DNA of 63,028 bases, counting the filler, from Craspedostauros australis (lineage: Eukaryota), in assembly GCA_030167865.1 (NCBI GenBank). It is 14 parts of 14 records of this genome, joined end to end, with 100 filler letters (N's around TTAATTAATTAA, not from the genome) between each part and the next. Parts side by side here need not be neighbours in the genome. Positions count along the whole stretch, not along the records: positions 36,125 to 43,840 come from JALAGF010000308.1; positions 43,941 to 45,766 come from JALAGF010000309.1; 12 more parts are not named here. One strand, 5' to 3'. Below the pieces are notes generated by a model. The model did not search any database. It was not told the origin of the DNA and saw only the letters and a program-made list of their open reading frames with translations. This document shows, piece by piece, positions 27,306 through 50,061 of the stretch (the stretch's first letter is position 1; every line of letters starts with the position of its first letter). The position numbers and the translations under genes were made by a program.

Positions 27306-27879
27306 TTACGACGATCCCGACGACTTGGAAGATCCAGACGAGCCAGATGATGAACGAGTCATGCGAGATGCGCGGATGGCCCAGACGAAGCCCATCGCAT
27401 TCAGGCGCTCGACGCGCACGGCGGTCAGTGTCGACTTCTTGCCAATTGAATGCAACCGATATTGCCGGCGCTGTCCCTTCACCCAGATACCGAGCGGTGG
27501 GTTTGGCGCATACTGAGTGGGGACATTCGTGTGCCCTGTCGCCTTCTGAAAGTCGATGAGCTCTCGGAAATGGAACTCCCAAGCGGCCTCATGAGTGTCC
27601 CACACGAAGCCGAGCGCCTGCAACTTGCTCTGCCTGCCATCCGTGAGTGTGGAATGGTTGCCATCCATCTTCTGCTTGTACTGGAAGCGCTGTCGCTTGA
27701 TCCAGTGCGAGAGCGTTTTGCTGTCGTTTGGATCGACGAGGCAGTGCCCGTGCTGCTTTTGGTACTGGACGAGCTCATGGTACCGCTGTTCCCATTGGTT
27801 GGCCTGGTATTTTCGGAACTTGATGGGCGTGGATGCGGATGTGGATGCGGAAGTAGCTTCGGTTGCGGTTGCGGTTGCG
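27306..27879 (-). CDS. HA domain protein, paralog 3 (3' part; 5' end lost in gap)
   Basis: Frame is open from the gap: ...TPIKFRKYQANQWEQRYHELVQYQKQHGHCLVD...LSHWIKRQRFQY...LGFVWDTHEAAWE...GHTNVP...LNAMGFVW. Confidence 0.85.
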
Positions 27880-29725: not shown

Positions 29726-29729
29726 GAAT

Positions 29730-29950
29730 TTTTTCGTTGGAGTTGGATTTTCGTGTGCTGTTGTGACACGATCCGGAAGGGATGGCCTAGTTGACTGCCA
29801 GATTCGAGGAATCTGATGATGAAGTCAACTTGGGGCGACCGTCTGGGGATTAGTAGTTAATGACAATGAAGTAGATTAGTGTTGTTGTGCTGATCTTGAG
29901 TTGTGCTATTTGTTATTTGAATAGTCTGCATTGTGAGTTTGATAGAACGA
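29730..29950 (-). repeat. Inverted partial copy of the ~750-bp dispersed repeat
   Basis: Reverse complement matches 32620-32840 (e.g. GTGCTGATCTTGAGTTGTGCTAT, AGTCTGCATTGTGAGTT). Confidence 0.75.
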
Positions 29951-30283
29951 TATTGAAAACGAGGGTAACTTACTGTACGCCGAAGGGTGATCAATCCGTG
30001 GTAGTGCAGTAGGTTGGTGAGTTTGTGTGTGAGTGTGTGTCTTAGTCTTTAAAAGCTGATACGAATCCAAATGAGACTTTCAAAAGGATTGTGAGCAGAT
30101 GATGAGCAGCATCCATTAGAGCTGGATCTGCATCATCTCTATTAGTAGTGGTATAGTGGAGCGTTGAGTCTCCCACGTGCAATNNNNNNNNNNNNNNNNN
30201 NNNNNNNNNNNNNNNNNNNNNNNNNNNTTAATTAATTAANNNNNNNNNNNNNNNNNNNNNNNNNNNNNNNNNNNNNNNNNNNN

Positions 30284-32019
30284 CGTTTTGGTGCCTGGCA
30301 CGATGATTGGATCAATGAAATGGCCGGCGTATCACTGCGACAGACTCGAAAATAATAATTTAGCCACAAAGTCGACACATCAACCATTTCCCTGTTGGAC
30401 AGCGTAGAGTACTCTAGTTCATGATGTTGTTGATGAATCCTGTTGAGCAGAGGGTCGGACCTGCTATATTGCATACTGACATCAGCCATTGGCATGTACT
30501 TACCTTGGAATGGTCTACATCCAACTACAGGGAGATTCAGATCACATGTAGTCAGTTCCTGTGATATCGTTCGGTCACTGTGTGCACTGTGTTGGTCATA
30601 TGTGCAAACAAAAGGTCAAGCAGAATTGATTATAGCAATCCCATCACTCCAAGCACACTCCAAAGGGTACGGCCACGAAGTTTGAGGTCTCTAATCCGTC
30701 TGGAAGGTACTCATATCTGAAAATCTGGATATGATATGGTGCTGTGTGTGACGGTAGTGTGAGCTACGCATCTGGATGTATAGTAACTCGACCATTTGTC
30801 CATATAAAATGTCAGTCGCGATCCAATCCAACACTACCACCACTCCAAGCACACTCCAAAGAGTACGGATAAGGAGTTTGAAGTCTAGAATCAGGGTGGA
30901 AAGGATCGAAATCTACGAATGGGGATCTCGCATGGAAATGGCTGGCGTCGTTAAATGGGGCTCACCTGCACGCATGCCAATACCCCTTTCTGACGGATCT
31001 AACACTTCAAACTCCTTATCCGTACTCTTTGGAGTGTGCTTGGAGTGGTGGTAGTGTTGGATTGGATCGCGACTGACATTTTGTATGCACAACTGGTCGA
31101 GTTACTGTACAGTTTGATGCGTACCGTACTGTACCGCCCCCACAGCATCACATGACATCCTGATCTGTAGATTTCGATCCTTTCCACATGGATTTATCAC
31201 TTCGACCTCTATATCTGTAACCTTTGGAGGGGGTTCGGAGTCATTGAAGTGTTGGATTGGAATATGATTGACTTTTTGTATGCACACATGCTCAGCATTC
31301 TGTACAGCGCGATGCGTACCGTTCAGTACTGCTTGGTATCAGCATCCGTAGAATTTGATCCCTTCTAAACGGATCTAGGACTTCAAACTCAGTGACCGTA
31401 CTCTTTGGGGTGCGCTTGGAGTAGTCCAGCTGGTTGGATCTCTGAAAACGGCCTGTGCAATGCATCGATATGCATAATACTGCACAAAACGATGCGAACC
31501 GTGCAGTCTCGTCCAATACAGTACTGAGGGATATCAACATCCGTAGAATTCGATCCCTTCCAGACGGATCTAACACTGCAGACTCCATGGCCGTACTCTT
31601 GGGAGTGTGCTTGGAGTGGTGCGGTTGGTATCATCAAATATGATTGACCTTTTGTATGCACAGTACACACAGTGACCGAACGGTATCGCAGGAATGGACT
31701 ACATGTATTTGAAACTCCTCGCAGTTGGGAATGGATCATCTCAAGGTAGGTACATGCCAATGGCTGATGTCAGTATGCAATATAGTTGGTTTAACTCTCT
31801 ACTCGTATTCCACAGAACATGATTCATTGCCATTATAACTTGTCTCATCTACTCTACTGGGAAACGGTTGGTGTGTGTGTTTCGTGGCTAAATTAATATT
31901 TTCGTCGTTGTCGCAAGGACACGCCTGTCAACGGTCCGGCCATTGTGATTGGCCAGGCACCAAAACGACCTGGTTAGTGAACTTTGGCCTCAAAAACGAC
32001 CCGGTTAGTGAATTTGCTC
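30284..32019. mobile_element. Foldback element, copy 2
   Basis: Apparently identical to copy 1 over the first ~700 bp, scattered substitutions after that, different right flank. Confidence 0.75.
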
Positions 32020-32084
32020 AAAAAACAAAGAAACAGGATTCCACGCACGGACACACTCAACAAAGTTGAAGTTAGTTGAAGTTT

Positions 32085-33575
32085 ATCTAAAGAACAGACT
32101 ACTTTCCACTTAGTGCATGCTGTGTCGCACCACGAAATTGTATTTGGCGCCAATTTTGGCGCGAAACCCTCCACCTACAAACACGGAAAACCCCTATTCT
32201 ACCTCGTTCTCCCACTCTCACTCACGAATCACTGCTGATTCAAAACTCACTTGAATCATCGAGATCAATGTACTCCGGGAACTATATGCTCCTCTGAAAT
32301 ATCGTGTCACACCTAACTCTGATTCCATTGTCAGCCATGCCAACTACCAACTTAACCCGACAACAACAAGGAGATCCTCCCTGCTTCAACATGAGCAGGG
32401 AATCTAACACCAATTCCTGTTGCCTGACAACCTGTGTTCTCAAAACACAACCTCAACCAAGATGTCAAGCCTTTGTACTCAAGCATAGAACAACTACCAC
32501 AGATAGCAGAGAGAGAAAGAGAGAGGAAGAGATCATCTGTTCTCAGCACTGAACCTCTTATGATCAGTGCAGAGCCACACTATCCATCTGAGCATCGTTT
32601 CTTCATCCTACATCTCAACCTGATCAACTCACAATGCAGACTATCAAATAACAGATAGCACAACTCAAGATCAGCACAACTCAAGATCAGCACAACAACT
32701 CTAATCTACTCATTTTCAACAACTACAATCTTTCCAGATGGTCGTCCATAGCCAACTGCAGCCCCAGCTTTGTTGAGACTGGCAGTCGGCTAGACCTTCC
32801 CTTCTGGATTGCGTCACAATGATACACAAAAATCCAACTAAGTTCAATAAGGGACAGACGATGTCAAACTTACGGTGTCCCACGCTGATGCCTGAAATTT
32901 ACTTTTGGGGCGATGCCTTCCGACTCCGACGACCGCAACACCCTCCTTCTTCTCCTCCCTCCTTTCGTCATTCACGGATAATTGCTGACTCAAACCACTT
33001 GATTGACTCGACTCAAGTTATTCTTGGAACCATGCTCCTCAGACTCCTTTCGACTGCACCTTGTCTTGATTCCCTCCATGACTATGGCAACCACTATGTT
33101 GCCACAGTCATGGCAGGGAGATCCAACTTACTTAAACCCAAGCAGGGAATCCGATGGTGAATCCCAACAATAACTGCTGCTACATCTTCTTTGCAACTTC
33201 AACTCAATGTTGAGTTGCAATGCTCTATACTTGAAGACAACAGCAGATGGAGAGATAAGTAGAGCAAGGACCAACGTCCGCCCTCAACACTGAACCATGT
33301 GGATCAGTGCAGAGCCGCACCAACTGTGCGAACATCGTTTCTTCATCCTAGTACAGCAACTAACTAACTCATAATAGCACAAGCCGAGATTAGTACAAAC
33401 AGCACTCCTCTATTCACCGTTGCAGTAACACTACTTCGCCAAATGCTCACCCCTCGCGAACTGCATCAAATGGTTTCTTTTGACCAGCAGTTCGCAGGGT
33501 TTCCTTCCAGATCATGTCACCAACAGCGCACGAATTCCAACTAAAATCAACAAATTCAAACCAACACAAATTTAG
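32085..33575 (+). repeat. Two diverged tandem units (~750 bp) of a dispersed repeat family
   Basis: Shared blocks such as CACTGAACC..GATCAGTGCAGAGCC..CATCGTTTCTTCATCCTA at ~32548 and ~33288, and TGCTGA(C/T)TCAAA..CACTTGA at ~32232 and ~32983. Confidence 0.7.
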
Positions 33576-33843
33576 AAAATAGGCTAAGCTAGTCTATTCG
33601 CGAGAGAGAGAGGAGAAGTCGATTTCCTGTACTCGTAGAGCTGTATGGTACAAGCTCTGCACGCCGCAGTGAACGATCACATCCAGTGGCATTCTCACAA
33701 GCACGATAAGCTCTGGCATGAACCTCCCCTCGGTTGTGTTCTTGGGGAGGCTCGATTCGCGTTCTTTGGTCTCTCTTTTTCGCGAATCCTGTTCGCATGA
33801 AGCATTCATGCACACATTCATGCATGCGCGCATGAAGTGTCTT

Positions 33844-35271
33844 TCACACAAGTCCGCAACAACTCTTCCAGTTGTTGATCTCGGTTGTCACAGCCTTCAA
33901 CAGTTCCTTCATGGGCACGCAAACACCCACTCCGCGTACCTGGTTGAGATTGATAGCATTTGCATGTCCCTCGGCGGTCTCTGCCTCTATGTCCACTCCA
34001 AGGTACACATGCGAATGATTGATGCCTGAAAGACTCGAAAGCGTCCCGAAGAAATTTGGAATACCATATCCATGTGGGAATATCTCAATCAGCGATCCGC
34101 ATCGTGGCATCAGGAACAAGCCAGTACACTGGGCACCGTGAGGCGTGACCAAGATATCGACATTCGCAAATGCCTCTGCTTGCTGCTCGAATGACACCCC
34201 CTCGAAGAATATCACCGGTGGCTGGTACGTCAGATCGAAGTGTTCCTTCAGAAGCGTAGATACGATTGTCACATTCATAAGTCTTCGATGCCTCTGTCGA
34301 CTGAGGATCACGATACGTGGCTGTGGATCTGTCGCCAGGAGTGAGAGCTGGGCTCTCTTTGATTGCGTTGAATTTGCGTTTGTGTAGGCAGCGAGATCGT
34401 CGACAATCAGGGCCTTCGAGCAGGAGGTGGCGGGGGCTGTGTAGCCCGGAATGGAGTCTATGACTTTTTGTTTGAAGTGCTGCATATCATTCGTGTTGGC
34501 CATCCTGTAATGGTCGAGGTTCGATGTTTCGGAAACTAGTAGTTTTGATTGATCAGATGGATAGTCCCTGACGAAATCTTTGGGTCTACTGTGGATGATT
34601 GTGATGTTGTTTTGATGCAGCATGTGGGTGATCGCTCTGTTGAAGGCCGAGTTCTTCAGCATTTCGCTGAATCGGTACTCACCAACCATCATGATGTGGG
34701 TTGCATTCGGAAAGTGGTTCCACAACGACCAGCACTGGAGGATATGCTGCATGGAATGGGGAAAATGATTGGCGAATTTGTACTGCTTGAAACTGCATCC
34801 CACCGTGTCAAACTCCGTGCTTGGAGGTGCCTTGCTGGACGCCCAGACTTCTCGGAAGTCACCGTGCATTTGTGTGATGAATTCAGTTGGAGGGTAGGAT
34901 TTGGGGAAGTTGCTGACCTCAAAGAATCCTGGTAGAGATGGGTCCGTCACATCGCAAGTGCGTTTGGTTAGGTGAAGGGGTTCCACGAATATGGTCTCTT
35001 GTGTCATGAAATCTGGGAATGATGTGATGGAGCGCGAGATGGAATCCGGCTGTGTAGTTGAAGTGCGTGGATCTGGTCCTGCGAATCCAATATCAAAGAG
35101 CACCTGTTGTGCACGTGTACTCGTCGTGGAGTAGACGCGACCGCTTTGCGAGATAATGTTCAAAATCGTCAACCCCACCACTATCATGGTTGCGATGATG
35201 GCCTGCTTCATGTTTCGCTTCCTTCCGACGGTTGTGACGACCACATGCTTTGCGCGTCGCTTCCTTTCCAT
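33844..35271 (-). CDS. Glycosyltransferase family 61 (DUF563-type), type II membrane protein
   Basis: Intact intronless 475-aa ORF. Basic N-tail plus one TM. GT61 C-terminal signature RIVILSR..RRLMN...FFEGVSFEQQAEAFANVDILVTPHGAQCTGLFLMPRCGSLIEIFP. Confidence 0.88.
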   Translation of the reverse strand: MERKRRAKHVVVTTVGRKRNMKQAIIATMIVVGLTILNIISQSGRVYSTTSTRAQQVLFDIGFAGPDPRTSTTQPDSISRSITSFPDFMTQETIFVEPLHLTKRTCDVTDPSLPGFFEVSNFPKSYPPTEFITQMHGDFREVWASSKAPPSTEFDTVGCSFKQYKFANHFPHSMQHILQCWSLWNHFPNATHIMMVGEYRFSEMLKNSAFNRAITHMLHQNNITIIHSRPKDFVRDYPSDQSKLLVSETSNLDHYRMANTNDMQHFKQKVIDSIPGYTAPATSCSKALIVDDLAAYTNANSTQSKRAQLSLLATDPQPRIVILSRQRHRRLMNVTIVSTLLKEHFDLTYQPPVIFFEGVSFEQQAEAFANVDILVTPHGAQCTGLFLMPRCGSLIEIFPHGYGIPNFFGTLSSLSGINHSHVYLGVDIEAETAEGHANAINLNQVRGVGVCVPMKELLKAVTTEINNWKSCCGLV

Positions 35272-35604
35272 GGTGAGGGCGCGAACACTTTCAGCACGAA
35301 GAGACGAGACGAGCGAGGTTGGAGCAGACTTGTGAATGCACGTGGTATGGTGATGACAGTGCGACTGTACGTTGCTCTTGTGATAGTTTTGGGATGGAAG
35401 CTGCCGTCACACCAACGAGTGGTATAGTTTGTTTGCTGTTCAAGTTGCTTGTGTTGTGTTGGCTCCTGCAGTTCGCTCTGTGCAGTGTTTGATGTTCAAT
35501 CATTATTGTGGCGTGCGTTGGAACTGTCGCTGCCTCTTCTCCTGTCCCAAGGGTTTTTCGAGAGTCTGTGTGGAAATACGACTTTCCTCACTTCAGGAAT
35601 GTGG

Positions 35605-36024
35605 AAAATAGTTAGGATTCGTGCGTAGGCGTCGCGAATCGGTGGAGAATGCCTCGTGAATCTGCCGGCTTCGGGATAGCCGTGTGATGCAGTTCAAGAG
35701 AGGTGTGCTGTTTGAATAGTTATAACTTGTAACGATGAGAAGTAGAGTGCTTTGTAGCTAATCCTAGTCCGTTATTATGAGTTAGCTTATTGGTGTTAGT
35801 AGGGTGAAGAAACGATGCCACACAACTTGGCNNNNNNNNNNNNNNNNNNNNNNNNNNNNNNNNNNNNNNNNNNNNNNNNNNNNNNNNNNNNTTGCTCTCC
35901 GCACATGTAGTTACACTGCAGTGTAGGTCATGACAATCAGTGGTGACGGTCATGAAGCAGTGGCTGTGGCTGAAGCTGACACTCGGATTCCATTGCTTGA
36001 GTTGAAGCAAGTTGGATACGCATG
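35605..36024 (-). repeat. Inverted copy of the ~750-bp repeat on the 5' side of the GT61 gene
   Basis: TAGTTAGGATTCGTGCG, TGATGCAGTTC, TTATTATGAGTTAG, GTGAAGAAACGATG and CGGATTCC..TGCTTG.GTT.AAG.AAGTTGGAT match the reverse complement of 33115-33555. Confidence 0.7.
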
Positions 36025-36124: not shown

Positions 36125-37440
36125 CTATCTTGATGGCCCTTCCAATTTCATAGGTGGAGTTGCCAAGGTAGTCACAGTCTCTCATTCATTTTACCAGAGT
36201 CCACCAGATATGAGAAGGAATCTCCTTGTCTGTCATTCCCTCCATGGTGACCTTGGTGGGTGAGTCTGACTTGAGGCAATTGACCATGTCAACCAGTTCT
36301 TGTCTCATGTTTTCAGACAAGGTATTGGCTGTGACCAAGTGATATGGTCTGACAACAGGGAGCAGCTCGCCCTGATACTCTGGATGAAGCTGTTCCACTT
36401 TGAGCTGGTCCATGGAATCAACTTGCTCACCATGCATATCAGCCCTGTCTGACAGGCTTCTGAAGTATAGCCTCAGGGCATTGGAAGTGGTAGTGTAGTT
36501 GTCAATGATCCTGGCATTTGCAGGGCCCACTGAGATTGGCTCCCCCTTGAGCTTGGAGTTGCAGATCACATCATTGATCTTTCCAGTTCTGGCTGAGTGT
36601 GCAGAGAAGTATCTGAGAGGGTAGCCTGCATGGTAGCAGAGAGCTCTGATGTTGATGCAAATCTGTTCAGTCTGGGCAATACCAAAGAGATAGCCAGGAT
36701 GTTTCCACTTCTGCAGTCTGTATGTTCTCAGATATCATCCCATGGCCACAGAGGCCTCAACACTCAGCACTGCCTCCCTTGGTGTCATATCAGTTGCTGT
36801 CCATTTCTGTGACTTGAAGTAGATGACATACTGTTTGGTGTCTTTGTTGTACATGAGCCACTTCATTGCTTTGCCGACTGCTGCCTTGCCTCTTGCTCCA
36901 GTTTCAAATAGGAAGAAGAGCAAAGCAATATCCCTGTGTTCATTGGGTGTGGGAGGTGCACCTCGTTGCAGCCTTCTGATGTCAGGGAGTGTGAGTGGCT
37001 CTGACCTCTGTACAGCCTGGGCTGGCCATATGTTGATTCTTTCTAGGTTGTGGTAGATAATGGAGAACTTTGGGGAGCTGTGAGAGAGGGCCTTGAGCCC
37101 TGCAGCTGTATTGTTGATGGTGCACCAGTCTGGGAACCTCTTGGAGATTTCATTGTATGCCCTTCTGGCATCCTTGGTCACAATGGTGTGGAGGCTGATG
37201 GTAGGGATTCTGTACAACACAGCCTATGTGATGTACAGAGCCAGGCAAGCTCCCATTTGATCTCCAGAGAGCAGTGACTCTCAGGTCTCATGTAGGTTGA
37301 AGTCCATGGTGTCTCTGTTTGGGTCTTTGTCTGGCCTGTCATTTGGTAAGTTGTCATCTTCATGAGTGCTGTGAAGGAACAAATCGTCCACTAGCTTCTC
37401 CATTCTGTTCAACTCTTGCTTCTCTTTGGGTGTGAGATAC
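36125..37440 (-). pseudogene. Tyrosine recombinase (YR) gene, N-terminal and catalytic part, with in-frame stops
   Basis: One frame with stops at 37281-83 (TGA), 37224-26 (TAG), 36735-37 (TGA) and 36186-88 (TGA). Motifs RDIALLFFLFETGAR (catalytic R), FSAHSAR (HxxR) and SNALRLY (candidate catalytic Y). Confidence 0.8.
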
Positions 37441-37643
37441 ATCTGTTGATTGTCCTTCACATTGTTGAAAAGTTGAACATCCCATCAGTGCCTGGAAACC
37501 TTTCCTCTGCTGGCACATCAGGGGCATCTACATTAGTTGAATTTGTTGGTTGTGTTGTGTTGTGATGAATGATGGCTAGAGATGCATTGGTTAGTTGCTA
37601 CTGCTATAGACAACTTGGCTGGTTTCAGGCTGGCAGGGAGGAA

Positions 37644-37914
37644 GTGGATGGCTTGTGGATGGCTTGTGGATGGCTTGTGGATGGCTTGTGGATGGCTTGT
37701 GGATGGCTTGTGGATGGCTTGTGGATGGCTTGTGGATGGCTTGTGGATGGCTTGTGGATGGCTTGTGGATGGCTTGTGGATGGCTTGTGGATGGCTTGTG
37801 GATGGCTTGTGGATGGCTTGTGGATGGCTTGTGGATGGCTTGTGGATGGCTTGTGGATGGCTTGTGGATGGCTTGTGGATGGCTTGTGGATGGCTTGTGG
37901 ATGGCTTGTGGATG
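37644..37914. repeat. Perfect 11-bp tandem repeat (GTGGATGGCTT) x~24.5 upstream of the YR gene
   Basis: Direct reading. Confidence 0.95.
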
Positions 37915-38760
37915 ACATGTGGATTGGTGGTGCTGGTGTGGCCTGTTGAAGGATGGACACCAGCTGGGTGGCCTGTTGGCAGTGGGACACAAGGTGGTCT
38001 GAAAAGTGAAATGGCGCATGCTGGTCGATTGCTGTTTTTGTTGTTTCGGTTGTTCAGGACTGGGTACCATGGGGAGTCAGTCACATTTGGGTCCGCTCAC
38101 AATTTGGGATCGATGCGTGTCACAAAAGCATTCCGACAGTGCCAGCTTTTGCAGGGCAACGAGCTCATGGAACTCATGGGATTCTACACAATGAAGCACT
38201 AGATCTACCGCGTTCCTCCCCCCTTCCCTTGCTTGCCACAGAAATCCACTTTTGGACATCATTGCAACTCATATTCATGCTCAGAAGTTCCATAGTTCCC
38301 CAACTTGCACCATTGCTCCAATCACCAGCATACATACTGTGCTCTGACAGCCCAAGCACACATCACACGAAGCACGATCAAACACTCCCAAACGCACCAA
38401 AAACGCTAAGGAAACGAAGAAAATCAACTTCATCAAGACCAAAAATCTGGCAAAAATCACCCATAACACGGCAACGAGCCCTCGTTCTCTGACCTACTGA
38501 TCAGGCATCGAGCATCAGGCGACAACATCAAGAACAAACATCAGCAAAAATCGACAAAAACACTGCAACAGCGAGCATCAACCACAAGTAAGTCGTCTCG
38601 AACAGAAACACTCTCTCAAAAACAGCACATCACAACACAGCGCATCTCACTGTATCTCACTGTATCTCACTGTTTCTCATTTTATCTCTTTGCATCTCTT
38701 TTCATCTCGTTTCATCTCAGTATTACAATATAGAGACACACTGCAGAAATTTGAAACACA

Positions 38761-39312
38761 ATGAGTCAACCCCACCTGTCCCCGCAGAAGCACTCAGAGT
38801 CGGAGGAGGCCAGTGTCATTGTCATTGTCATTGAGGGAGGAGATACCTTGGGCATGGAGGAAAACCTTGTTGGTGTCTGCGCCAAGGCTTGTTGCATCAA
38901 GCCAAAGCGCACCTACGACATGAGGGGCATCGAGTTTGGGATGCCCTTGGTGGATCGCCGCATTGCCAAGAAGGCAAGGTTGTCTCCAACAGAGAACCTT
39001 GAGGACAGCATTGATTCGGATGAGGAGAGCTACTTCAGTGCACCATTTGATGAAAAAATCATGGATGCCACCGCAAGAAGCACCGGAACAGGCACATGCC
39101 TCACCTGCAGCAGTGTGGGTTCAACCGGAACCATCTGCAAGAACTGCATTCAGCTCCAAATGCCACCGGAATACATTAGGGTTAGTGATGTATCCAAGAT
39201 GATGGACCTGGCCCCATTTGAAAATCGATGTGCCACCAGGTCCTCAATTGATCTTGATGACCCAATCGGATACTTCTCCTACGGCACAGAAATGACCAGC
39301 GAAAGCACTTGA
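38761..39312 (+). CDS. Hypothetical protein with CxxC-x9-CxxC zinc ribbon, divergent from the YR gene (possibly degenerate)
   Basis: 183-aa ORF, CLTCSSVGSTGTICKNC. Preceded by a putative 5'UTR intron 38588-38720 (GTAAGT..TCTCAG). Confidence 0.45.
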   Translation: MSQPHLSPQKHSESEEASVIVIVIEGGDTLGMEENLVGVCAKACCIKPKRTYDMRGIEFGMPLVDRRIAKKARLSPTENLEDSIDSDEESYFSAPFDEKIMDATARSTGTGTCLTCSSVGSTGTICKNCIQLQMPPEYIRVSDVSKMMDLAPFENRCATRSSIDLDDPIGYFSYGTEMTSEST

Positions 39313-40479
39313 GAAAAATACGCTGTTTTGGGAGGTGCGGCAATCACAGGATAATTCGGCGAAATCGTATCCTGGATCCCTGACCGGCCTAAACATCATT
39401 TGAGATGTCAACACGCCATGCACAACCTAATTGCAGGTGTCCATTGTCTAGGATACTGCATTGGACACATCACAATACAGATGGGATGACTTGGATTGTG
39501 AGTCAGGATTTGTTTCATAGCGTGTCCCTGTGTGGTTGGATCTGTGAGCGAAGGAAGTATCGGTTCAGCACACAAGCACACAGACTCATCAGAAAATGGA
39601 TCAGGTGGATCATGTGGTGTGCTCATACTCTTGATATACAGGGAGGAAAGCCTACAAGATAGTCAGAGTGTGTTCATCTTTGATAGACCCATTGGTCTAT
39701 CATTGGCAGGCTGGGAGGAGCGGCAATCACAGGTTAATACGACTAAACCGTACCCTCAATTCCTGACACCTGCCAAGCCTCAACCGATGGAATTGATGCA
39801 GCGCTGCATGTGACTGCGATACAAACGGATTTGATACTCTGCTGATGATGATGAGAAGATCTGCTTGTCCAAGTGTGGTATGTTGTTTTCACAACCTACG
39901 TGGCTGTTTGGGAATAGCATGCTCATGCACAAAAATGACCACTAGAATGAATACAAATGATTTGCCAGTAAATTCTGGTGTCTGTTGGCACAGTTTGTCT
40001 TCTACAGAGCAAGTACGGTCTCATGCCCATGGATGAATATCTGATCGTCTCCTTGGCGCTCTTGTTCAAGCCAACGAGCAATAATTGAGAGCTGCATGTG
40101 CATTGCCCACTTGCTTTGTTCCAACTCACTGAAGCTGAGATGCAGCAGTGGGGCAATGACAAGTTGGTTGCATTGGATGATTCGGCCAACCAACACTCTC
40201 CGTAGCGTTGACATGCCGCGCATCGCCTTTATCAGCATATATCCGTTTAGTGGTAATTCCGGTACTCCCGTAGCTCCCACTATCTATAAATTACACATTT
40301 GTCCGTTTCAGCAACTGCAACACCTGTGGCTAAACAGCAGAGAACCAGTAATTCTACCTGAGCTTCCGGGTTCGAATACCAGCATTCTGCTTTGCTTTTC
40401 CACTGACAGTGTGATTTTACAATGGAGTTGAAATTCACTTAAGGACAGACTATTTTTCTTTTAGTGTGTCCCATGTCAT

Positions 40480-41030
40480 TTCCTGAAATTCACTGTTGCG
40501 CAAACTCTTCCAACCCTGACAACTGTCACCCCTTTTTCTCTTCCCATATTTTATTCACAGACCATCACTGACTCAAAGGCATGATTGACTCGATCCAAGC
40601 TGTCCTGGGAACTAAATGCTCACTGAACCTGTGTACTGCGACCCACCCCAATTCCCTCCTCAGCTAGGACATCGGCTCTCACAACATGATGATAGCAAGG
40701 AAATCCAACCTGGTTCAACACAAGCAGAGAATCTAACTCTGAATTCCAATAAACAATCTGCTGTGTCTTCATATGCAACCTCAACAAGGTGTCAGGTGCC
40801 AGTACTTACTACTGGATGACAACTGCAGATGGAGAGATCAACAAGAGCAAGGCGCCTTGTCAGACGTCAACACTGAACCCCTGAGGATCAGTGCAGAGCC
40901 ACACCAACTGTGCAAACATCATTTCTTCATCCTATCTACATCAACTGATCAACTCATATTCCCCTTCCATCCAAATGCAATAGTACAAGAAAAGATTAGT
41001 ACAAACACCACTGCTCTACTGGTTGTTGAT
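40480..41030 (+). repeat. Further diverged copy of the ~750-bp repeat
   Basis: CACTGAACCCCTGAGGATCAGTGCAGAGCCACACCAACTGTGCAAACATCATTTCTTCATCCTA at ~40871; GCAGATGGAGAGAT; GATTAGTACAAACA. Confidence 0.7.
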
Positions 41031-41065
41031 ACAACTCCATCCCCAGGCGCTCATGCTGCGCAAGC

Positions 41066-42640
41066 TGTCAATAGTTATTAGCGTGTCCCTCATCTCCAAA
41101 TTGATCGTTGTGTCCTCGTCAGGCATCAGACATTGTCTTCCTGTGCCTGGTGTGGAGAACGATGCCCGGTGTTCCGACGAAACCGTATCGAGGACGGTTC
41201 CACTGGCCCGAATTTGGTGGTCGGAGAGCAGCGTTACCCGGCTATCGACGTTCAGGGCGGCTTCGTAGACCCGAAGGATCACTTCATTGCCTTCCTTGAT
41301 CCTGGTCTTGATGCTCGCATCTACCACCGCGAGGTTGTTCTTCCTCATCGTGCTTGCTACGGCACCGACGATGTTGTATGTCCAATGTGGATATACGTAG
41401 TCGATCTTCCAGACTCGGTCCTTGTTCCCGATGACGCAGCATTGCGCGCCGCCGTCGCATACTGCGTAAGTCTGCGGGGAAATGTCGCAAGGTTGATCAG
41501 TTGTTCGGGTACTGATTGGCGTTGCTGGGAGGCTGGCGGATGGATGGGGTTTGTTGCGTCGGATGGACGGGGTTTGTTGCGTCGGATGGACGGGGTTTGT
41601 TGCGTCGGATGGACGGGGTTTGTTGCGTCGGATGGACAGGGTTTGTTGCGTCGGATGGACGGGGTTTGTTGCGTCGGATGAATCACTCATTGTGATCATC
41701 TTCACGAGCCGATCGTTGTCATTGTCCTCGTGTCCTCTATATTCGACCAGAAACTTGGCCAGTTCTGATGCGTCGATCGAGGACAGGTCCGAGCCATTCT
41801 CGTTCTGGGAGTCGGTTCCTTCGGTGAATCCTGGGGTGCATCTGGCCAGGTTTTCATGGGTTATGCCTCCGTACTGCTTGTGCGGCGTGGCTTCCTCCCC
41901 TTTTCTGGGGGCTTCACGCTGGCAGGTGGTTGGTTGTCATCCTGCTCCTTCTTGTTTTCGACGCGGGTGAACCCGGATCCGTTCTGGCCGTTGCTGCGGC
42001 AGCCCATTGGAGTGAGCTGCAGAGCTTCATGATGACCCTTCGGACCTTTTCGGGTAGTCCGTCGAATACCTCTTGCGAGATGAAGGTAGGATCTTCCTGG
42101 AGTTTCTTTGAGATGGCATTGATGACCATCTCGGTGTTGCGTTCGCCGTGGTCTTGGCTGATCTCGGCGGTTGCCTTGAAGATTTGGCGTTTCCCGGATC
42201 TTGATCCACGCTGGTTGTTGGCAACTGCGGTGTCTCTGGCGGACTCAGAGATGAGATACATGCAGGTGGCTCCCATCGACTGCATGTCCGGGCTTCGCTC
42301 GATGCTCCGGACCATGGTGCGTACGTTGATGTCGTCGCAACCGATGAGGTGGTTGAGGAGCGTACGACGTTGTTGCGCGTCGGAGACTTGTTGGTCGGGG
42401 TTGGTTGCCAGGAAATTCACATTTGCGAATATGTCCTGGATTTCTTTCATGTAAGATCCCAGGTCCTGCCTGCTGGGGTTGAACTCGTGCACTCTCTTCA
42501 TCAGAGAGTCGACTTCCATTCCTCTGATCCAGTCGTTGTCGTAGGTGTTGAGGAGCTCATTCCAGAATAGGATACCGTCCTCGGTGAGGAGTCCGTGTGC
42601 TGGGCCACCAGCAAAGACGGAATATAGTCCCAAGTTAGAG
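41066..42640 (-). mobile_element. Ty1/Copia (diatom CoDi-like) gag-protease fragment, frameshifted and truncated
   Basis: Gag-like DGILFWNELLNTYD. Protease motif AVCDGGAQCCVIG followed by TLLSDHQIRASGTVLD. Gag and PR lie in different frames. Confidence 0.7.
41539..41681. repeat. 23-bp tandem repeat (GGATGGACGGGGTTTGTTGCGTC) x~6 inside the Copia fragment
   Basis: Direct reading. Confidence 0.9.
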
Positions 42641-43684
42641 TTGATGGCCTCCCACAGACAATGGTGGGACTCCCTAATGATTTCAATCAAAGAGGTCCAA
42701 TTTGTCACCTTTGTTACCTTCTGTGCAGTCTTTTGTTTTGCACGGGCGAAGACTGACCATCACCCTCACAATTGCACTAGCGTGAGAATCAAACCAAGAC
42801 TGCCCATTGTGATCTTCAACTTCCATGCAGGAAGGTCAAGATACATTTCCTGGATCTATGCAATGTGCTGCTGTCAAGCCATAATAGCTGATGCATGCCA
42901 CAGGATTCCAACATTGGCCTATGCTAACATCACATTCATTCAAGACCAAATGTATGCCTGCAACATCAAACAGAGATCTCCCAAGACCTCTAGTCTTGGC
43001 ATGAGTGGACAGGCATGGAAAGTCATACTTGTGGGGCAATGCATTGCACGAAATAATGTGTCAAAACAGGCACGATCGATCATCTGAACATCCTGGGAGG
43101 TGCGGTAATCCATCGGTTTTGAAAGACTCCTTTTTGTATTTACTGATCTTAATGTAGAATTCACGTGACTCCCAACGGGCAACATCTGGTACTATTTTGA
43201 CTCCCGCATCCAAACAACCAACGCGCACACACACCTGTTGCCCCCCAAGCTTGGCATCAACAAGCCAATGCAACACATTCATGGCACGTAACTGCAAATA
43301 CACTGCAGAGAGAGTTGAGGATACTGAATCACTGTTACTCTAAATTGTCCACTGCACTGTTTCATTTCACATTCTCTTGGCTCACATTCATTTTCTTCAA
43401 TTGGCTGCATGTGTATTCTCCTCCTGACTGTCACCACCAATCCCATTGTAGCCTGGGAATTGGTGGATGAAGTGGTTGAGGGAGAGCTGCCCATCACCCA
43501 CTGCTATCTCCGCTGCTGCTTCTTCTGCTGCTTCCTCTGCTTGTTGTTCTGCTGCCATTGCCAATGGAGCTGCGCCTGCCAAGAAGCCTTCTGCCCGGTT
43601 TTCAGCAGCCAGCAGAGCTCTTGCTTCTGCTCTTGCAATCATCACAATGGATGCAAGATAACCTGGTGGGAGTCATGGTGGCAA

Positions 43685-43840
43685 TGGTGGTGCTGGTGGT
43701 GGTGCTGGTGGTGGTGCTGGTGGTGGTGCTGCTGCTGCTGGTGCTGTTGCTGCTGGTGCTGCTGCTGGTGCTGCTGCTGCTGGTGCTGCTGCTGCTGGTG
43801 GTGCTGCTGGTGCTGCTGGTGGTGGTGCTGCTGGTGGTGG
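43685..43840. repeat. (TGG/TGC)n trinucleotide tract; encodes a Pro/Ala-rich segment of a degenerate minus-strand ORF
   Basis: Direct reading. The minus frame continues ...PPAPPLPP*LPPGYLASIVMIARAEARALLAAE. Confidence 0.8.
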
Positions 43841-43940
43841 NNNNNNNNNNNNNNNNNNNNNNNNNNNNNNNNNNNNNNNNNNNNTTAATTAATTAANNNN
43901 NNNNNNNNNNNNNNNNNNNNNNNNNNNNNNNNNNNNNNNN

Positions 43941-45641
43941 TGCTACCATGCAGGCTACCCTCTCAGATACTTCTCTGCACACTCAGCCAGAACTGGAAAG
44001 ATCAATGATGTGATCTGCAACTCCAAGCTCAAGGGGGAGCCAATCTCAGTGGGCCCTGCAAATGCCAGGATCATTGACAACTACACTACCACTTCCAATG
44101 CCCTGAGGCTATACTTCAGAAGCCTGTCAGACAGGGCTGATATGCATGGTGAGCAAGTTGATTCCATGGACCAGCTCAAAGTGGAACAGCTTCATCCAGA
44201 GTATCAGGGCGAGCTGCTCCCTGTTGTCAGACCATATCACTTGGTCACAGCCAATACCTTGTCTGAAAACATGAGACAAGAACTGGTTGACATGGTCAAT
44301 TGCCTCAAGTCAGACTCACCCACCAAGGTCACCATGGAGGGAATGACAGACAAGGAGATTCCTTCTCATATCTGGTGGACTCTGGTAAAATGAATGAGAG
44401 ACTGTGACTACCTTGGCAACTCCACCTATGAAATTGGAAGGGCCATCAAGATAGACATGGCCACAGATCATTTCAGAAGTGTTGGCAGGTGCTTGAGGTT
44501 CATGATGGCAACTGGTGAGCTCACCATCAACAAGCTCATCAAGTTGCCAGAAGATGCCATTCTTGAGGTCAGTGAACATGTGCTGATGTACTTCAGATTG
44601 CCCAGGCTCAACAAGGGAGACAAGAGACAGCTCATGGAGAGACCCAAGACCAAGTTTGATGCCTTGGAGTCAACCAACATCAAGCTTTACAACAAAGGAC
44701 TCAAGAACAGGCTCCAAATTCGTACAGAGGGTATTGTCATGGTGGCATCCACACAGTACAATGCAACCAAGCTGACTGACAACCAGGTGGCCATGATAGA
44801 GCAAGCAAAGCAGAGTGGCCAGAATGTGGATGAGATGGCTTTCCATGAAGCAGGACCAGATGCCAAGGTGACAGATCAAGTCACTGCCTCAGTCTACGAA
44901 TGATCTGGTGAAGAAGAGGAGGAGGAGGTTGCCAAAGCCACAGCAGCAATATATGAACCTTCTGATGAGGAAGATGAAGAGCCAGTTTGGGTCATGGGAG
45001 GAGGCCCCCAGTATGAGCCTTCTGATGAGGAAAATGAAGAGACACATCCTGCTGTTCCAAGGAGACCACCACAGAAGCCTGCATCTCCACAGCATGATGA
45101 CATGGAGTCCTCCTCCTCTGAAGGAGATGAGTGCAGGGACAAAGGCTGGATGGATCCTGTGAATTCCACTGCTCTCTCTGGTGAGTCATGGGTTCCTTCC
45201 TCATCTGAGGTGGAGAGTGATGACAACAACTCTTCCCATTTTGCTTCATGCCTCCCCAAGATGATCCACATTCATGACACTGACAGTGAAGATGGTGCTG
45301 GAAAACCATCTGTCATCATCTCACCCTCCGCATCTCCTTTGAAGAGGCCACACAGGGCAACCAGGGATGCACCTCATGCCCAACACATTGCAACCATGTC
45401 AGTTGCTGCAACAATGAATGAGAACATGCAACAGACCATACGGAAGCAGCGCAGAAAAATAGAGAAGCTTGAGCAGAAGTGCACTAGCCTTGAAATAGCC
45501 AACACAGTGATGCAGGAGCACATGAAAGGATACACTTCTCTTCTCCAACAGATCTGGGTTCTCAAGATGTAAAAAGAGAAGTTGGAGAAAACCATTGCAG
45601 CGTTCCAAGGTGATGAAAGCAATGAAACCAGTGGCAGCTAG
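43941..45641 (+). pseudogene. YR gene, catalytic end plus long C-terminal extension (acidic region and coiled coil)
   Basis: 43941-44454 is the reverse complement of 36125-36638. The single frame continues through TGA 44391-93, TGA 44901-03 and TAA 45570-72 to TAG 45639-41. Confidence 0.75.
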
Positions 45642-45868
45642 TTGCATTACCAACTAGCAGTACTTACCATCAATGTCTATCTGCATTCCACAATGTTTCC
45701 TTGTCTTAGCACCATCAGGTGATAGTGCTAGTGCACCTTGTTTTCATAGAGCATGTGCATGGGCTGNNNNNNNNNNNNNNNNNNNNNNNNNNNNNNNNNN
45801 NNNNNNNNNNTTAATTAATTAANNNNNNNNNNNNNNNNNNNNNNNNNNNNNNNNNNNNNNNNNNNNCC

Positions 45869-46411
45869 AGTTGGTATTCCGTGTCTTTCGCACGTTATCA
45901 GGAGGATGGTCTGTCCTTCAACCGGTTTTGACGCCGTTTGATGTTGAGGACAAAGCTGTATCAGATGATGATGTAACTGTAGTAGACTCGGGAGTAAGCT
46001 GTGAAGATTATTTCTGATTGCTTGTTTTATGTGTTAAGCTTACTGTTGATAAGACGATCGAGTAAAAAGGTGGGGTTCATGCTGTCATGCTTCAGCCGTT
46101 CTTTGTTGCGCAGCAGCATGCTGTGGTGGTTCTGCACACATACAGTCGTCCAGTATCATCACCCATAGAGCAGCAGCTGATCCATTCACATGGATATGCT
46201 TCAAGATAGGTGCATGTTCGGCAGGATGACGAGCTGGACAGGTGGCAGGGGTGCATGAGCTGGAGGGCGAGCAAAGCGTGGATTGTGGTTCAACTACACT
46301 TCGCGTGTGCGGTAGCCTTTCATCACAGTATCGGTTTTGGATACCGAATACCGTGTGCGCGGAATGGACAGTCAAGTCCCGGGTCAGTCCCGGAGGTAGT
46401 CTGTCCCAACT
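45869..46411 (-). mobile_element. 543-bp insertion element (redundant inverted copy of 47481-48023)
   Basis: Reverse complement of 47481-48023. TSD copy ACTCC (GGAGT on the minus strand) at 46412-46416. Confidence 0.8.
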
Positions 46412-47035
46412 ACTCCCATGGCTGGCAACGCTGCTTGGAGCATCGGACGCATGATATTGCCAGCCGCCATCTTGGTGAAGGTAGCACTGGCCAGCGGGTA
46501 TTCCAGGGTCTTCATGATAGTGGCATGCAGCGCCACCTTGGCTTGCCCTCGGAGCAACCCTCCCCTTCTTACCGCGTCTGCCCACTTGCAAGCCTTCTGG
46601 GTGTACATTCTTTCGTTGTCTTCCTGAGCCCCGTCGTGACGCACCATCACTCCTAACGCTTTGCGCGCTTGGTTGACTGAGAGGCGCTGCAGCTCTGATC
46701 TTTCTTCACTGTCGGGCTGCCTGATGCTGATGTTGCCTGGGACCTCAGTTTCCTGCTTGTATTCCCATGCTTTGCCATTCCACTTGAACGCCAACAGGTA
46801 CCAGTAACTCTTTCGCGGCTCCAGTGCTCCTCCCATTGCTCGGAGCACCCCTTCCCACATGTCAACCACTTGTTGCACTTCCTGTATGCACCCCGTTGAG
46901 TCCGTTGCGTCGGCTTGGATGGTGTGAATTATGTCAGTATCGTCGACGAATGAGAAGCATACCAATTGGGTTGATTCGCTGGTGATTGGGTGCTGCGATG
47001 AGAATCCGTAGCCTCGATCTGCCATGATCTTCATG
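46412..47035 (-). mobile_element. Non-LTR retrotransposon ORF2, reverse transcriptase C-terminal half (Ambal-like)
   Basis: CFSFVDDTD (YxDD-equivalent), WEGVLRAMGGALEPRKSYWYL, RKALGV, KTLEYPL. Confidence 0.85.
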
Positions 47036-47380
47036 TGTTGGCAAGTTCCGCTCACGGTAACCTACGATCGTGGAAGATGGTGTTGGTTGATAGTCGTCTG
47101 TTTGCTATTTCATTACTTGGNNNNNNNNNNNNNNNNNNNNNNNNNNNNNNNNNNNNNNNNNNNNNNNNNGCGCTTCAATCTGTTTCGTAGATTCAGTCTC
47201 CGACTATGAGTCGGTACGCGAGATCCTCTCTCGCTCCTCTCTGTATTCTCTCTCTCTCTCTCTCTTAGCATCGTGTGCTTGTGCTACACGATACTTCGTG
47301 TTCGATGCATACTCCGCATTCGACACTCCATTCATTCAGTACTGGCTCCTACTCCATGAGTACTTACCATTTGAAGTTCA
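47036..47380 (-). mobile_element. LTR family A, 3' end (..CTTGCCAACA on the minus strand) inserted into the LINE RT
   Basis: Matches 58374-58716; abruptly replaces RT coding sequence at 47036. Confidence 0.75.
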
Positions 47381-47480: not shown

Positions 47481-48023
47481 AGTTGGGACAGACTACCTCC
47501 GGGACTGACCCGGGACTTGACTGTCCATTCCGCGCACACGGTATTCGGTATCCAAAACCGATACTGTGATGAAAGGCTACCGCACACGCGAAGTGTAGTT
47601 GAACCACAATCCACGCTTTGCTCGCCCTCCAGCTCATGCACCCCTGCCACCTGTCCAGCTCGTCATCCTGCCGAACATGCACCTATCTTGAAGCATATCC
47701 ATGTGAATGGATCAGCTGCTGCTCTATGGGTGATGATACTGGACGACTGTATGTGTGCAGAACCACCACAGCATGCTGCTGCGCAACAAAGAACGGCTGA
47801 AGCATGACAGCATGAACCCCACCTTTTTACTCGATCGTCTTATCAACAGTAAGCTTAACACATAAAACAAGCAATCAGAAATAATCTTCACAGCTTACTC
47901 CCGAGTCTACTACAGTTACATCATCATCTGATACAGCTTTGTCCTCAACATCAAACGGCGTCAAAACCGGTTGAAGGACAGACCATCCTCCTGATAACGT
48001 GCGAAAGACACGGAATACCAACT
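47481..48023 (+). mobile_element. 543-bp insertion with AGTTGG...CCAACT termini and 5-bp TSD GGAGT (probable solo LTR with non-canonical ends)
   Basis: Removing it plus one GGAGT restores the LINE frame ...AALPAMG-VQRNVSRALAFGP... Confidence 0.8.
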
Positions 48024-49977
48024 GGAGTGCAAAGAAACGTCTCCCGCGCACTGGCGTTTGGACCGCGACGACATCTGGGACTCGGAATTCCGCACATCTA
48101 TTACACTCAAGCCACACGACACATTGAAGAAATCGTCAAACACTGGAAGGGCGACACAATCACGGGCAAACTGATGCGAAATGCAATGAGCATCCTAGAA
48201 CTACAGGCGGGAATGGACCAAGTCTTCACCAGACAGCAGGACCAATGGAAAGGCGTCATCAATGAGTCTTGGATGCAATCCGTCTGGGCGGAACTAAACG
48301 ACCTGGGCCTAACGATGCACTTCGAGCACTCGGATCTGGCGACACCAAGGGAAGGCGACACCTTCATCATGGAGCATATGCTGCCCCTCGGCCTGCCCCA
48401 AGCAACGTTGCAAATGGTCAACCATTGCAGGATCGCAAAGCAAGTGCTATGGGTGTCGGACATCGCGAACGTGGAAGGAAACGCCATACTGCCAACCTCT
48501 GTTTCTCCAGGGCCAGCACCGTTCCGACGAAGCCGGATACAATGGCCCCCGGTCGGCGAGCCAACCACCAGGCAGTGGAAGGCGTGGGAGCAAGCCATCA
48601 GCCGATGCTTCCCGGCATCCCGAGGACCGACGCGACCGGTAGTCCCACCACTTGGCCACTGGCGAAGCTACACGTCGCAAGTCCCCCGATATATGAGAGA
48701 TCCTAGCACAGACAGAGTGACGCGTCAACACCGCACCGATATATACTACAGACGGATTCCCAGACGAGGACGACGAAAGGAGTATGTCGAAACGACAGGA
48801 ACGACGATGCCAGGCACGGACCCAGTGGATGAGTACTTCAATGGAAACAACATGGTGATATCGGGAAGTTTGCAGGGCATACACCCGGAGCCCCGATCAC
48901 ACACCGCAACTCTTCACGAAGTGATCCAGCAACTTCCCGAGGGCTCCGCGTGGGCGATCGAAAGATGGGAAATCTTGGGCGAGGAAAAGGTCCTAGGCAA
49001 AGCTTTACGAACCGGCACAATGGTAACTTGCAGCGACGGATCAGTGACGAATGACAAAGGAGCTGCGGGCGCCGTCATCACAGGTAACAGTCAAGGCGAA
49101 ACAACCAAACTGTGGGTAACGTGCCTGACGCCCCGAAGCAGTGACATAATGCAATCACATCGAGCCGAGCTGTCCGGTCTGTACAGCCTTATGGTGGCCA
49201 TCCAAAGTATCTGTATCTCGCAGAGAGTGGAGTCCGGTCACATCACAATTGGTTGCAACAGCACTGGAGTGTTCAAGGCGCTGGACGAGGATTGGCACCT
49301 GTCAGCTCAATCCACAGATGCGGACCTCATGAGGGCAACACGCAGCAAGATGAAGCAGCTCCCGGTGAGAGTCACAGGCCGGCATGTAAAAGGACATCAG
49401 GACAACGGGAAACCGTGGCAGGAGCTCGATGACTGGGCAAAGATGAATGTGGAAGCCAACAGGCTGGCCGGTGCTCAACGACGGACCGCTGGAGAATTCT
49501 TACCCTACGACGGCGTCATTGAAGGCGAGGAAGTACACCTTCGCAGGTGTATGAAGATAACCTCTGTGCGCTACGTGCACATAGCAGAGGAAGGTCTGGC
49601 CAACGAAGCCTTCGAAGTGATGCGACGGAGGAAGGTGATGAAGAACGCGGCAGGAATCAGTTGGAAAGCAGTCGGCAAAGCCGTTCGAAGCCTGGACCAC
49701 CCGAAAGCCACTCTAACATTCAAATTGGTGACGGGGGAAGCGGCCGTGGGACGCAGAATGAAGCAATGGGGTCACCGGCAATCAAGTCAGTGCCCGAGTT
49801 GCGACGCCGAGGAGACATTCTCGCACGTGTGGGAGTGTCCGGCTGAACATCGAGCGGCAGCAACGGCCAAACATATCACAGGCATTCGAATATGGATGAT
49901 GAAATACCTGACAAGTCCACAAGCCGCGAAAGAAATTGTGGCCATACTGACCAGTCAATTTGCCAGCACAGTACATC
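48024..49977 (+). mobile_element. Non-LTR retrotransposon ORF2 continuation: RNase H and C-terminal CCHC zinc finger (Ambal-like)
   Basis: GPRRHLGLG; RNase H motifs CSDGS, SHRAELSGL, HVKGHQD, MNVEANRLA; CPSC..EETFSHVWEC. Confidence 0.85.
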
Positions 49978-50061
49978 TGTCGAGATGTACATGTGAGTAT
50001 ATGTCAAGATGTACGTGTATATGTGCATCGTCCACCCGCTATTCTCTCATACGCACTTGGA
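49978..50061 (+). mobile_element. LTR family A, 5' end (TGTCGAGATG...) inserted into the LINE 3' region
   Basis: Matches the reverse complement of 59085-59166 and of 51699-51780. Confidence 0.8.

Follow-up and report, generated by a model that had tools for sequence, protein, structure and literature searches.

The window analysed here is a stretch of 63,028 nucleotides (filler included) of Craspedostauros australis DNA, assembly GCA_030167865.1, and it carries a broken tyrosine recombinase (YR) gene which was surveyed for its reading frame, fold, relatives, base composition and surroundings. The locus is best read as a dead gene copy of about 811 codons that has no introns, and both its nonsense mutations and its nearly CpG-free composition were established in the analysis. 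We consider it somewhat probable (about 0.55) that the locus is the relic of a compact, Crypton-like DNA transposon which had the YR as its only enzyme and which belongs to a lineage absent from the searched libraries.

The window consists of 14 records joined by spacers of the form N44-TTAATTAATTAA-N44 and is not one chromosomal stretch. The gene is spread over two of these records, record A (36125-43840) and record B (43941-45766). When reverse-complemented, 43941-44454 agrees with 36125-36638 at all 514 positions, and each of the two segments forms the first bases of its own record. This start-to-start overlap is the way the assembly was written out and not a genomic inverted repeat, because the records 45867-47380 and 47481-50061 overlap likewise (start to start, in reverse complement, over 545 bases at 100%). 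Record A was reverse-complemented and merged with record B into a sequence of 9028 bp. The join is biologically sound, since the frame that crosses the junction is colinear with intact homologous proteins, and the original prediction that two overlapping contigs give one long frame holds on both counts. The parts of the gene are as follows.

36125..37442, minus strand: 5′ part of the pseudogene, which holds the core-binding-like domain at the N-terminus, the catalytic domain and the first part of the C-terminal extension (from translation, homologues, AlphaFold2 and hhalign)
43941..44454, plus strand: copy of the overlap in the second record, the same DNA and no extra copy of the gene (514/514 identity, record starts)
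44455..44855, plus strand: rest of the family-conserved C-terminal extension, to the 'FHEAG' motif (colinear with 13 full-length homologues and with the open reading frame (ORF) of the metagenome contig L001)
44856..45572, plus strand: acidic low-complexity tail with the in-frame TGA 44901-44903 and the terminal TAA 45570-45572 (from translation)
45573..45766, plus strand: the whole available 3′ flank, about 195-197 bp, to the end of the record (from coordinates)

The frame opens with a putative ATG at 37442-37440 (minus strand), closes with the TAA at 45570-45572 and has 811 codons with five in-frame stops, namely TGA 37283-37281, TAG 37226-37224, TGA 36737-36735, TGA 36188-36186 (in record A; the same bases as 44391-44393 in record B) and TGA 44901-44903. 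Over this stretch, the five remaining frames hold 21-51 stops each. Aligned with six close homologues the frame is colinear and requires zero frameshifts. A frame of about 830 codons broken only by point stops had been proposed; the point stops stand, while the length becomes 811 codons when counted from the putative ATG. The reported motifs RDIALLFFLFETGAR, SAHSAR and SNALRLY are all present in the translated frame. The C-terminal extension, put at about 500 amino acids (aa), measures 485 residues beyond the catalytic tyrosine, made up of about 247 family-conserved residues and an acidic tail of about 238, the tail not being conserved in the family apart from short acidic ends.

The positions of the stops tell how the gene was lost. 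Two of them stand at columns where all six close homologues have tryptophan (TGG to TGA and TGG to TAG), and a third stands at a column with R, R, R, R, K and M, which fits a change from CGA to TGA; the remaining two lie at a variable position and in the unaligned tail. The use of TGA as a sense codon was ruled out, with a TAG at one conserved tryptophan and another TGA at an arginine/lysine position, and reassignment of stop codons is not the explanation because TAG as well as TGA is found at conserved tryptophan positions. The excess of TGA among the stops was also considered as a special signal and rejected, for TGA/TCA outnumber TAA and TAG 3-5-fold in every record. Their commonness follows from the depletion of TA, by which most chance ORFs end in TGA. 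Over the whole window the TA dinucleotide has an observed/expected ratio of about 0.4.

For the fold, a 345-aa core was modelled with AlphaFold2 on a 17-row alignment, which gave a pLDDT (predicted local distance difference test) of 75.7 and a pTM (predicted template modelling score) of 0.69. The original prediction had named structure comparison as a check on the recombinase identity, and Foldseek with this model returned a YR fold with Cre as the best match, with 37 PDB matches at E<=0.001 and Cre chains on top (best E 1.1e-7, probability 1.0, about 300 aligned columns, template modelling (TM) score 0.47-0.52), followed by XerA, XerH and a staphylococcal integrase, and lower down by type IB topoisomerases. 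The profile of the family was aligned by hhalign with Cre of phage P1 over 222 columns (E 4.6e-4, probability only 32.8%), and in this alignment Cre R173, K201, H289, R292, W315 and Y324 fall on the family residues GAR, K, SHS, SxR, GxW and Y. In the window copy R184, K213, H282, R285 and Y326 are kept, and Y316 stands at the position of Cre W315 (numbered from the putative ATG); the respective codons on the minus strand are Arg 36893-36891 (ETGAR), Lys 36806-36804 (SQK), His 36599-36597 and Arg 36590-36588 (SAHSAR) and Tyr 36467-36465 (LRLY). Core residues R111 and Y253 recur in at least 90% of the 17 aligned rows. As the structure and profile comparisons agree with Cre, the predicted model and the alignment show the two-domain YR fold and the catalytic register R-K-H-R-(H/W)-Y, and the naming of the gene as a tyrosine recombinase is borne out.

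Plain searches do not find this relationship. Pfam assigns 0 families to the window protein, neither a PDB sequence search with the protein nor a profile search with the alignment gives a recombinase match, and a word-indexed homologue search with the window protein as query returns 0 matches. Pfam Phage_integrase (PF00589) matches one of 16 homologues below threshold (18.5 bits vs a cut-off of 27.1), and the integrase models of PHROGs and NCBIfam match none of 14 family members. The element had been called unclassified, rightly so, as Pfam, PHROGs, NCBIfam and PDB searches place it in no named family; the further remark that box I looks phage-integrase-like gets no support from the single sub-threshold match. 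The likeness to Cre of phage P1 and to Xer lies in the two-domain fold (Foldseek E 1e-7) and in six catalytic positions in register. The differences are an identity of only 13-16%, the want of any significant Pfam, PHROGs or NCBIfam integrase match in the family, the extra C-terminal extension of about 250 aa and the eukaryotic context.

The relatives of the gene were collected by searching all of 1.84 billion representative proteins with HMMER (cut-off E<=0.001), which gave 16 representative clusters, four of them below 1e-30, the best being 41% identical over 292 residues. A second profile search was made in a collection of 5.8 billion clusters, where the 8000 candidates sharing most words were scored; among these it gave 6 proteins, 3 of which were new clusters, all from ENA, unnamed and having no Pfam domain. 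In addition, a JGI metagenome contig of 3405 bp (L001) codes for an intact distant member of 596 aa (hhalign probability 96.9%, E 1.6e-10) and has no further ORF above 175 aa, nor any Pfam domain in the 1.4 kb upstream of its recombinase gene. This is the single metagenome locus, and no relatives were found in IMG/VR viral contigs (two completed scans) or in prokaryote genome contigs. All full-length members are intact, with 549-1283 aa, and have in common about 250 residues after the catalytic tyrosine, with the motifs QLHPxL, GPFR, YFxLP, ST(N/D) and NRxxxR.

In a maximum-likelihood tree of 17 rows, from which fragments below 300 aa (P0008, P0012, P0016 and P0019) were left out, the window copy is sister (support 93/96) to a clade of P0018, P0001, P0002, P0003 and P0017. 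Its end branch is 1.39 long, vs 0.24-0.50 in the members of the sister clade, and with its six closest relatives it shares 27-32% identity across about 580 aligned columns. The family as a whole forms deep and patchy lineages having at most about 30% identity between them. Every catalytic residue is kept in the closest clade; elsewhere several members have the first catalytic histidine replaced and two have the second arginine replaced. One member is fused to a WW domain.

The base composition of the gene gives a second and separate line of evidence. Two features are needed here, the first extending over both records.

36125..38015, continuing at 44455-45766, no strand: near-CpG-free zone (from CpG counts)
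37644..37924, no strand: 11-bp satellite GTGGATGGCTT immediately upstream of the recombinase gene (25.5 copies, 99% match)

The stretch that begins at merged position 5826 and takes in the rest of the sequence has 10 CpG vs 181 expected (observed/expected 0.05), and the last dense CpG is at merged position 5825, which is window position 38016. In the 1 kb before the zone the ratio is 0.61, and the two largest records that bear genes have about 1.0. The satellite fills the first roughly 300 bp of the zone and, since the zone starts with it, the upstream edge lies somewhere between 38015 and 37643; the compositionally distinct part, meaning the recombinase gene with the satellite just upstream, is at least 2.8-3.2 kb. 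The 'PSTSHPQAIHK' repeats which are met on translation were considered as an N-terminal protein domain and rejected, being the 11-bp satellite read in three frames. In the gene zone TpG (1.75) and CpA (1.59) are raised and TpA is not (0.38), a dinucleotide pattern that marks deamination of 5-methylcytosine, as opposed to repeat-induced point mutation (RIP). RIP-like hypermutation was rejected on the same TpA value and on the changes at conserved columns, about 17 of 89 of which are single C-to-T or G-to-A steps.

The arginine codons show that the loss of CpG is old. In the recombinase gene there are 35 AGR and 2 CGN codons, vs 52 AGR and 150 CGN in six ORFs of the neighbourhood that were taken as host genes (five have Pfam domains), and arginine is kept at 16 of the 21 columns where close homologues conserve it. 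Purely post-mortem decay of CpG was rejected on these grounds (arginine kept at 16/21 columns, AGR in 35/37 arginines), as the decay of CGN codons would have destroyed the arginines, so that the lineage was already CpG-poor while selection kept the protein. The avoidance of CpG is therefore older than the death of the gene, and it points to a long residence of the lineage under CpG methylation by the host. PMC9998398 reports for a model diatom that methylation disappears and young transposons are de-repressed when DNMT5a is lost. The window copy may serve as a small and clear case of a transposon gene whose codon usage was adapted to CpG methylation while it was still functional.

A second CpG-poor record is present at 55790-58142 (observed/expected 0.39), and it holds a 288-aa ORF at 56030-56893 (minus strand), to which no family was assigned and whose arginines are coded by 6 CGN vs 13 AGR. 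This record may be another methylated repeat.

It may be asked at this point whether the locus is a pseudogenised copy of a domesticated, immobile host gene family derived from a recombinase. The low copy number of the family in databases, the WW fusion and the replaced catalytic residues (first histidine in several members, second arginine in two) would all suit such a history, and according to PMC3212892 Crypton recombinases were domesticated repeatedly. The closest clade retains all catalytic residues, however, the window copy is dead, with a satellite and other repeats next to the CpG-free and presumably methylated patch in which it lies, and the lineages of the family are deep and patchy with at most about 30% identity between them. 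We prefer a mobile element over a host gene because the copy is pseudogenised, its methylation-type composition is confined to the gene, satellite and repeats stand next to it and the family is deep and patchy; the host gene explanation is accordingly held to be very unlikely.

The flanks of the gene on the side of record A contain the following features.

38755..39312, plus strand: 'Zn-ribbon' ORF of 185 aa, divergent to the recombinase gene and with one CxxC-x10-CxxC; no family match
40431..41018, no strand: dispersed repeat of roughly 590 bp, which begins directly after the 306-aa ORF
41019-41936, minus strand: 306-aa ORF, with a 23-bp tandem repeat of 6.3 copies at 41537-41680
41917-42759, minus strand: 281-aa ORF with normal CpG, overlapping the 306-aa ORF by about 20 bases in a +1 arrangement

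These flanks were scanned with Pfam (X at stops, E<=0.05) in six frames over 37441-41041, in the three minus-strand frames over 41016-43840 and, for the 3′ flank of 197 bp, in the three plus-strand frames. No reverse transcriptase (RT), RNase H, integrase or any other domain was found in the 6.4 kb upstream and 197 bp downstream, which agrees with the earlier remark that no RT or RNase H is visible. There are no inverted repeats of at least 18 bp in record A and no long direct repeats in the merged 9 kb besides the tandem arrays, and tRNA and Rfam scans gave no genes. Just past the gene, at about 45637-45658 and 60 bp beyond its stop codon, there is a perfect palindrome GCTAGTTG-6 nt-CAACTAGC with 8-bp arms; it was considered as a recombination site and rejected, as two such palindromes in 9 kb is the chance frequency.

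These scans bear on whether the gene belongs to a retrotransposon of the DIRS, PAT or Ngaro type, whose RT and RNase H ORF would lie beyond the end of the record. In DIRS-1 the recombinase ORF precedes the RT ORF, only 197 bp follow the stop codon here, and a gag-like lead of chance level lies upstream on the same strand; these elements are also alike in being eukaryotic and in encoding a recombinase with an HSxRxG-type box II. DIRS has been annotated in a diatom genome with 14 entries in the Phatr3 table, and the sections on repeats in two reports (PMC5859163 for the table; PMC5859163 and PMC7466962) already list Crypton and DIRS entries for diatoms. On the other side, neither the 6.4 kb upstream, nor the short 3′ flank, nor the 1.4 kb upstream of the L001 gene has an RT or RNase H, the 9 kb have no inverted or split direct repeats, although the element ends may lie outside the record, and the gag-like ORF upstream differs sharply in CpG and codon make-up. 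Over the merged 9 kb neither methyltransferase nor terminal repeats are seen, and the intact member stands alone on its 3.4-kb contig. The long conserved C-terminal extension is a further difference, and DIRS-type recombinases are not known to have a conserved C-terminal extension of about 250 aa. CryptonS, in contrast, are described with a conserved C-terminal region in the part of PMC3212892 that deals with them. A DIRS-type origin is on this evidence unlikely.

The two ORFs farther upstream raise another arrangement, a composite retro-like element of a new type in the order gag, protease and recombinase. The gag-like ORF, the protease-like ORF and the recombinase do share one strand and this order within 9 kb, and there are weak Atlas leads for the 281-aa and 306-aa ORFs to zf-CCHC, gag_pre-integrs and Pol_BBD clusters (scores 0.82-0.90). 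These leads are at chance level, so a gag or protease identity is a guess; neither ORF has a Pfam or PDB match, and a homologue search with the 306-aa ORF among longer proteins found none. No RT is present in the available sequence, and about 3.4 kb of non-coding and repeat DNA separate the ORFs from the recombinase. Their CpG observed/expected ratios are 0.87 and 1.09 and their arginine codons are CGN and AGR in the ratio 24:18, sharply different from the recombinase gene. Because this CpG and codon make-up is host-like, the two ORFs have a history unlike that of the gene, and they are probably a separate element or gene and not cargo. We regard a composite element as highly improbable.

The same figures answer the suggestion that the element may be large and gene-carrying. 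The recombinase would then be the integrase or 'captain' at the edge of a larger cargo-carrying or virus-like element (Starship-like, Polinton-like or an integrated virus), and the gene does lie at the edge of assembled sequence, with a CpG-poor, AGR-rich composition unlike the neighbouring ORFs that could mean foreign origin. Yet the near-CpG-free AGR zone covers the recombinase gene and the satellite alone and stops upstream of the gene without spreading over its neighbours, and the upstream ORFs, having ordinary CpG and CGN arginine codons, have a different history. For a Starship 'captain' or a Polinton-like virus, no Pfam match to DUF3435, capsid, polymerase or packaging domains was found in the scans of the window, homologues and upstream regions; two completed scans of IMG/VR contigs gave no relative, and the intact L001 member is alone on 3.4 kb. 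Neither a large element nor cargo is thus supported, and this explanation is quite unlikely. Of the divergent spliced Zn-ribbon gene that had been described upstream, the CxxC-x10-CxxC at 38755-39312 (plus strand) is confirmed and a family match is not. The dispersed repeat has two other copies of about 270-590 bp, 68% identical at 32840-33412 and 69% identical at 32367-32631, and both lie downstream of a GT61 glycosyltransferase gene (33847-35406) in another record.

The nearest known system to a Crypton-like transposon with a YR alone is that of the Crypton DNA transposons, CryptonS above all. In the passages of PMC3212892 on this group (Kojima and Jurka 2011), CryptonS occur in oomycetes and Phaeodactylum, encode a YR whose C-terminal region is conserved, lack an RT and are 2.5-4.7 kb in size. 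The element described here is similar in that the YR is apparently its only enzyme, with a conserved C-terminal region and no RT visible, in being compact (a distinct unit of at least 2.8-3.2 kb compared with 2.5-4.7 kb) and in its stramenopile host, if the diatom assignment is right. It differs, when compared by eye, in the box motifs, which are ETGARG / QKRRG / SSHSxRAG in the family vs GRxSD / RVKT / TSHSFRRGGAQHAN in the CryptonS shown in that source. Neither TATGG nor CTGTAAG was seen at any plausible element end, and it is for these two reasons that the gene was not filed as CryptonS.

Several observations weigh against the reading as a compact YR-only transposon. The alignment with Cre has an hhalign probability of no more than 32.8%, and the structural model was built from 17 aligned rows. 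Databases contain few members of the family and few copies of each (1-4 contigs per 90% cluster), and this scarcity would fit a host gene family too. The longest contigs of clusters P0017, P0018 and P0002 measure 10.3, 9.7 and 5.9 kb. With only 197 bp downstream of the stop codon, an RT ORF after the recombinase would fall beyond the record. The family box motifs are by eye unlike the CryptonS alignment in the supplement of the paper. No element ends and no terminal direct or inverted repeats were found in the 9 kb, the 3′ end of the element being outside the record, and the window has no second recombinase copy, nor was an empty site found.

For a Crypton-like transposon of this kind the following mechanism may be proposed. 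The recombinase would have three parts, a Cre-like N-terminal DNA-clamp, a catalytic domain and the C-terminal extension of about 250 aa with the acidic tail, and its gene would be the sole enzyme of an element of about 3-5 kb. By analogy with known recombinases, the enzyme may excise the element as a circle and then integrate it site-specifically at a short matching core, and the C-terminal extension may act as an extra module for recognition of DNA or of the element ends. The lineage would have lived long under CpG methylation of its host, with the arginines kept by selection being coded by AGR and not by CGN. The present copy would then have died by a few transitions, TGG to TGA, TGG to TAG and probably CGA to TGA.

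A wider and more tentative suggestion, which we consider possible but would not press, is that the family represents an undescribed lineage of YR elements at the level of a superfamily, neither Crypton A/F/I/S nor DIRS-like, with its own DNA-recognition module of about 250 aa and with intact, possibly active members in marine protists, the AGR codons being the record of a methylation arms race. In the literature on recombinase elements in diatoms and algae, no description of the recombinase family was found, and Repbase or Dfam, which lie outside the searches made here, may already hold it under a Crypton label.

Among the classes of eukaryotic transposons, the one with tyrosine recombinases is the least understood. 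A passage of PMC3212892 states that no Crypton has been studied for transposition. The intact homologues of 550-760 aa are new candidates for the study of how a YR cuts and rejoins DNA. As the recombinase family escapes Pfam, PHROGs and NCBIfam, profile-based annotation of repeats may miss its members in diatoms and marine protists.

Some further observations were made in other records of the window. The joined records 45867-47380 and 47481-50061 read like a long interspersed nuclear element (LINE) type of retroelement, with a 'FVDD' box and an RNase H-like stretch; they have a weak zf-RVT match below the cut-off (E 0.0044) and no match to the Pfam RVT models. The records 27980-30183 and 30284-36024 begin alike, with 97.9% identity over about 1.74 kb in the same orientation, and probably represent one locus, either as two alleles or as two branches of the assembly. 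Diatoms have many genes with helicase-associated (HA) domains, and in the window three paralogous ORFs at 19387-21060, 22892-24517 and 27309-27878 (minus strand) end in tandem HA domains (PF03457; E 1e-35 to 1e-38), being 59-68% identical to one another in the HA part.

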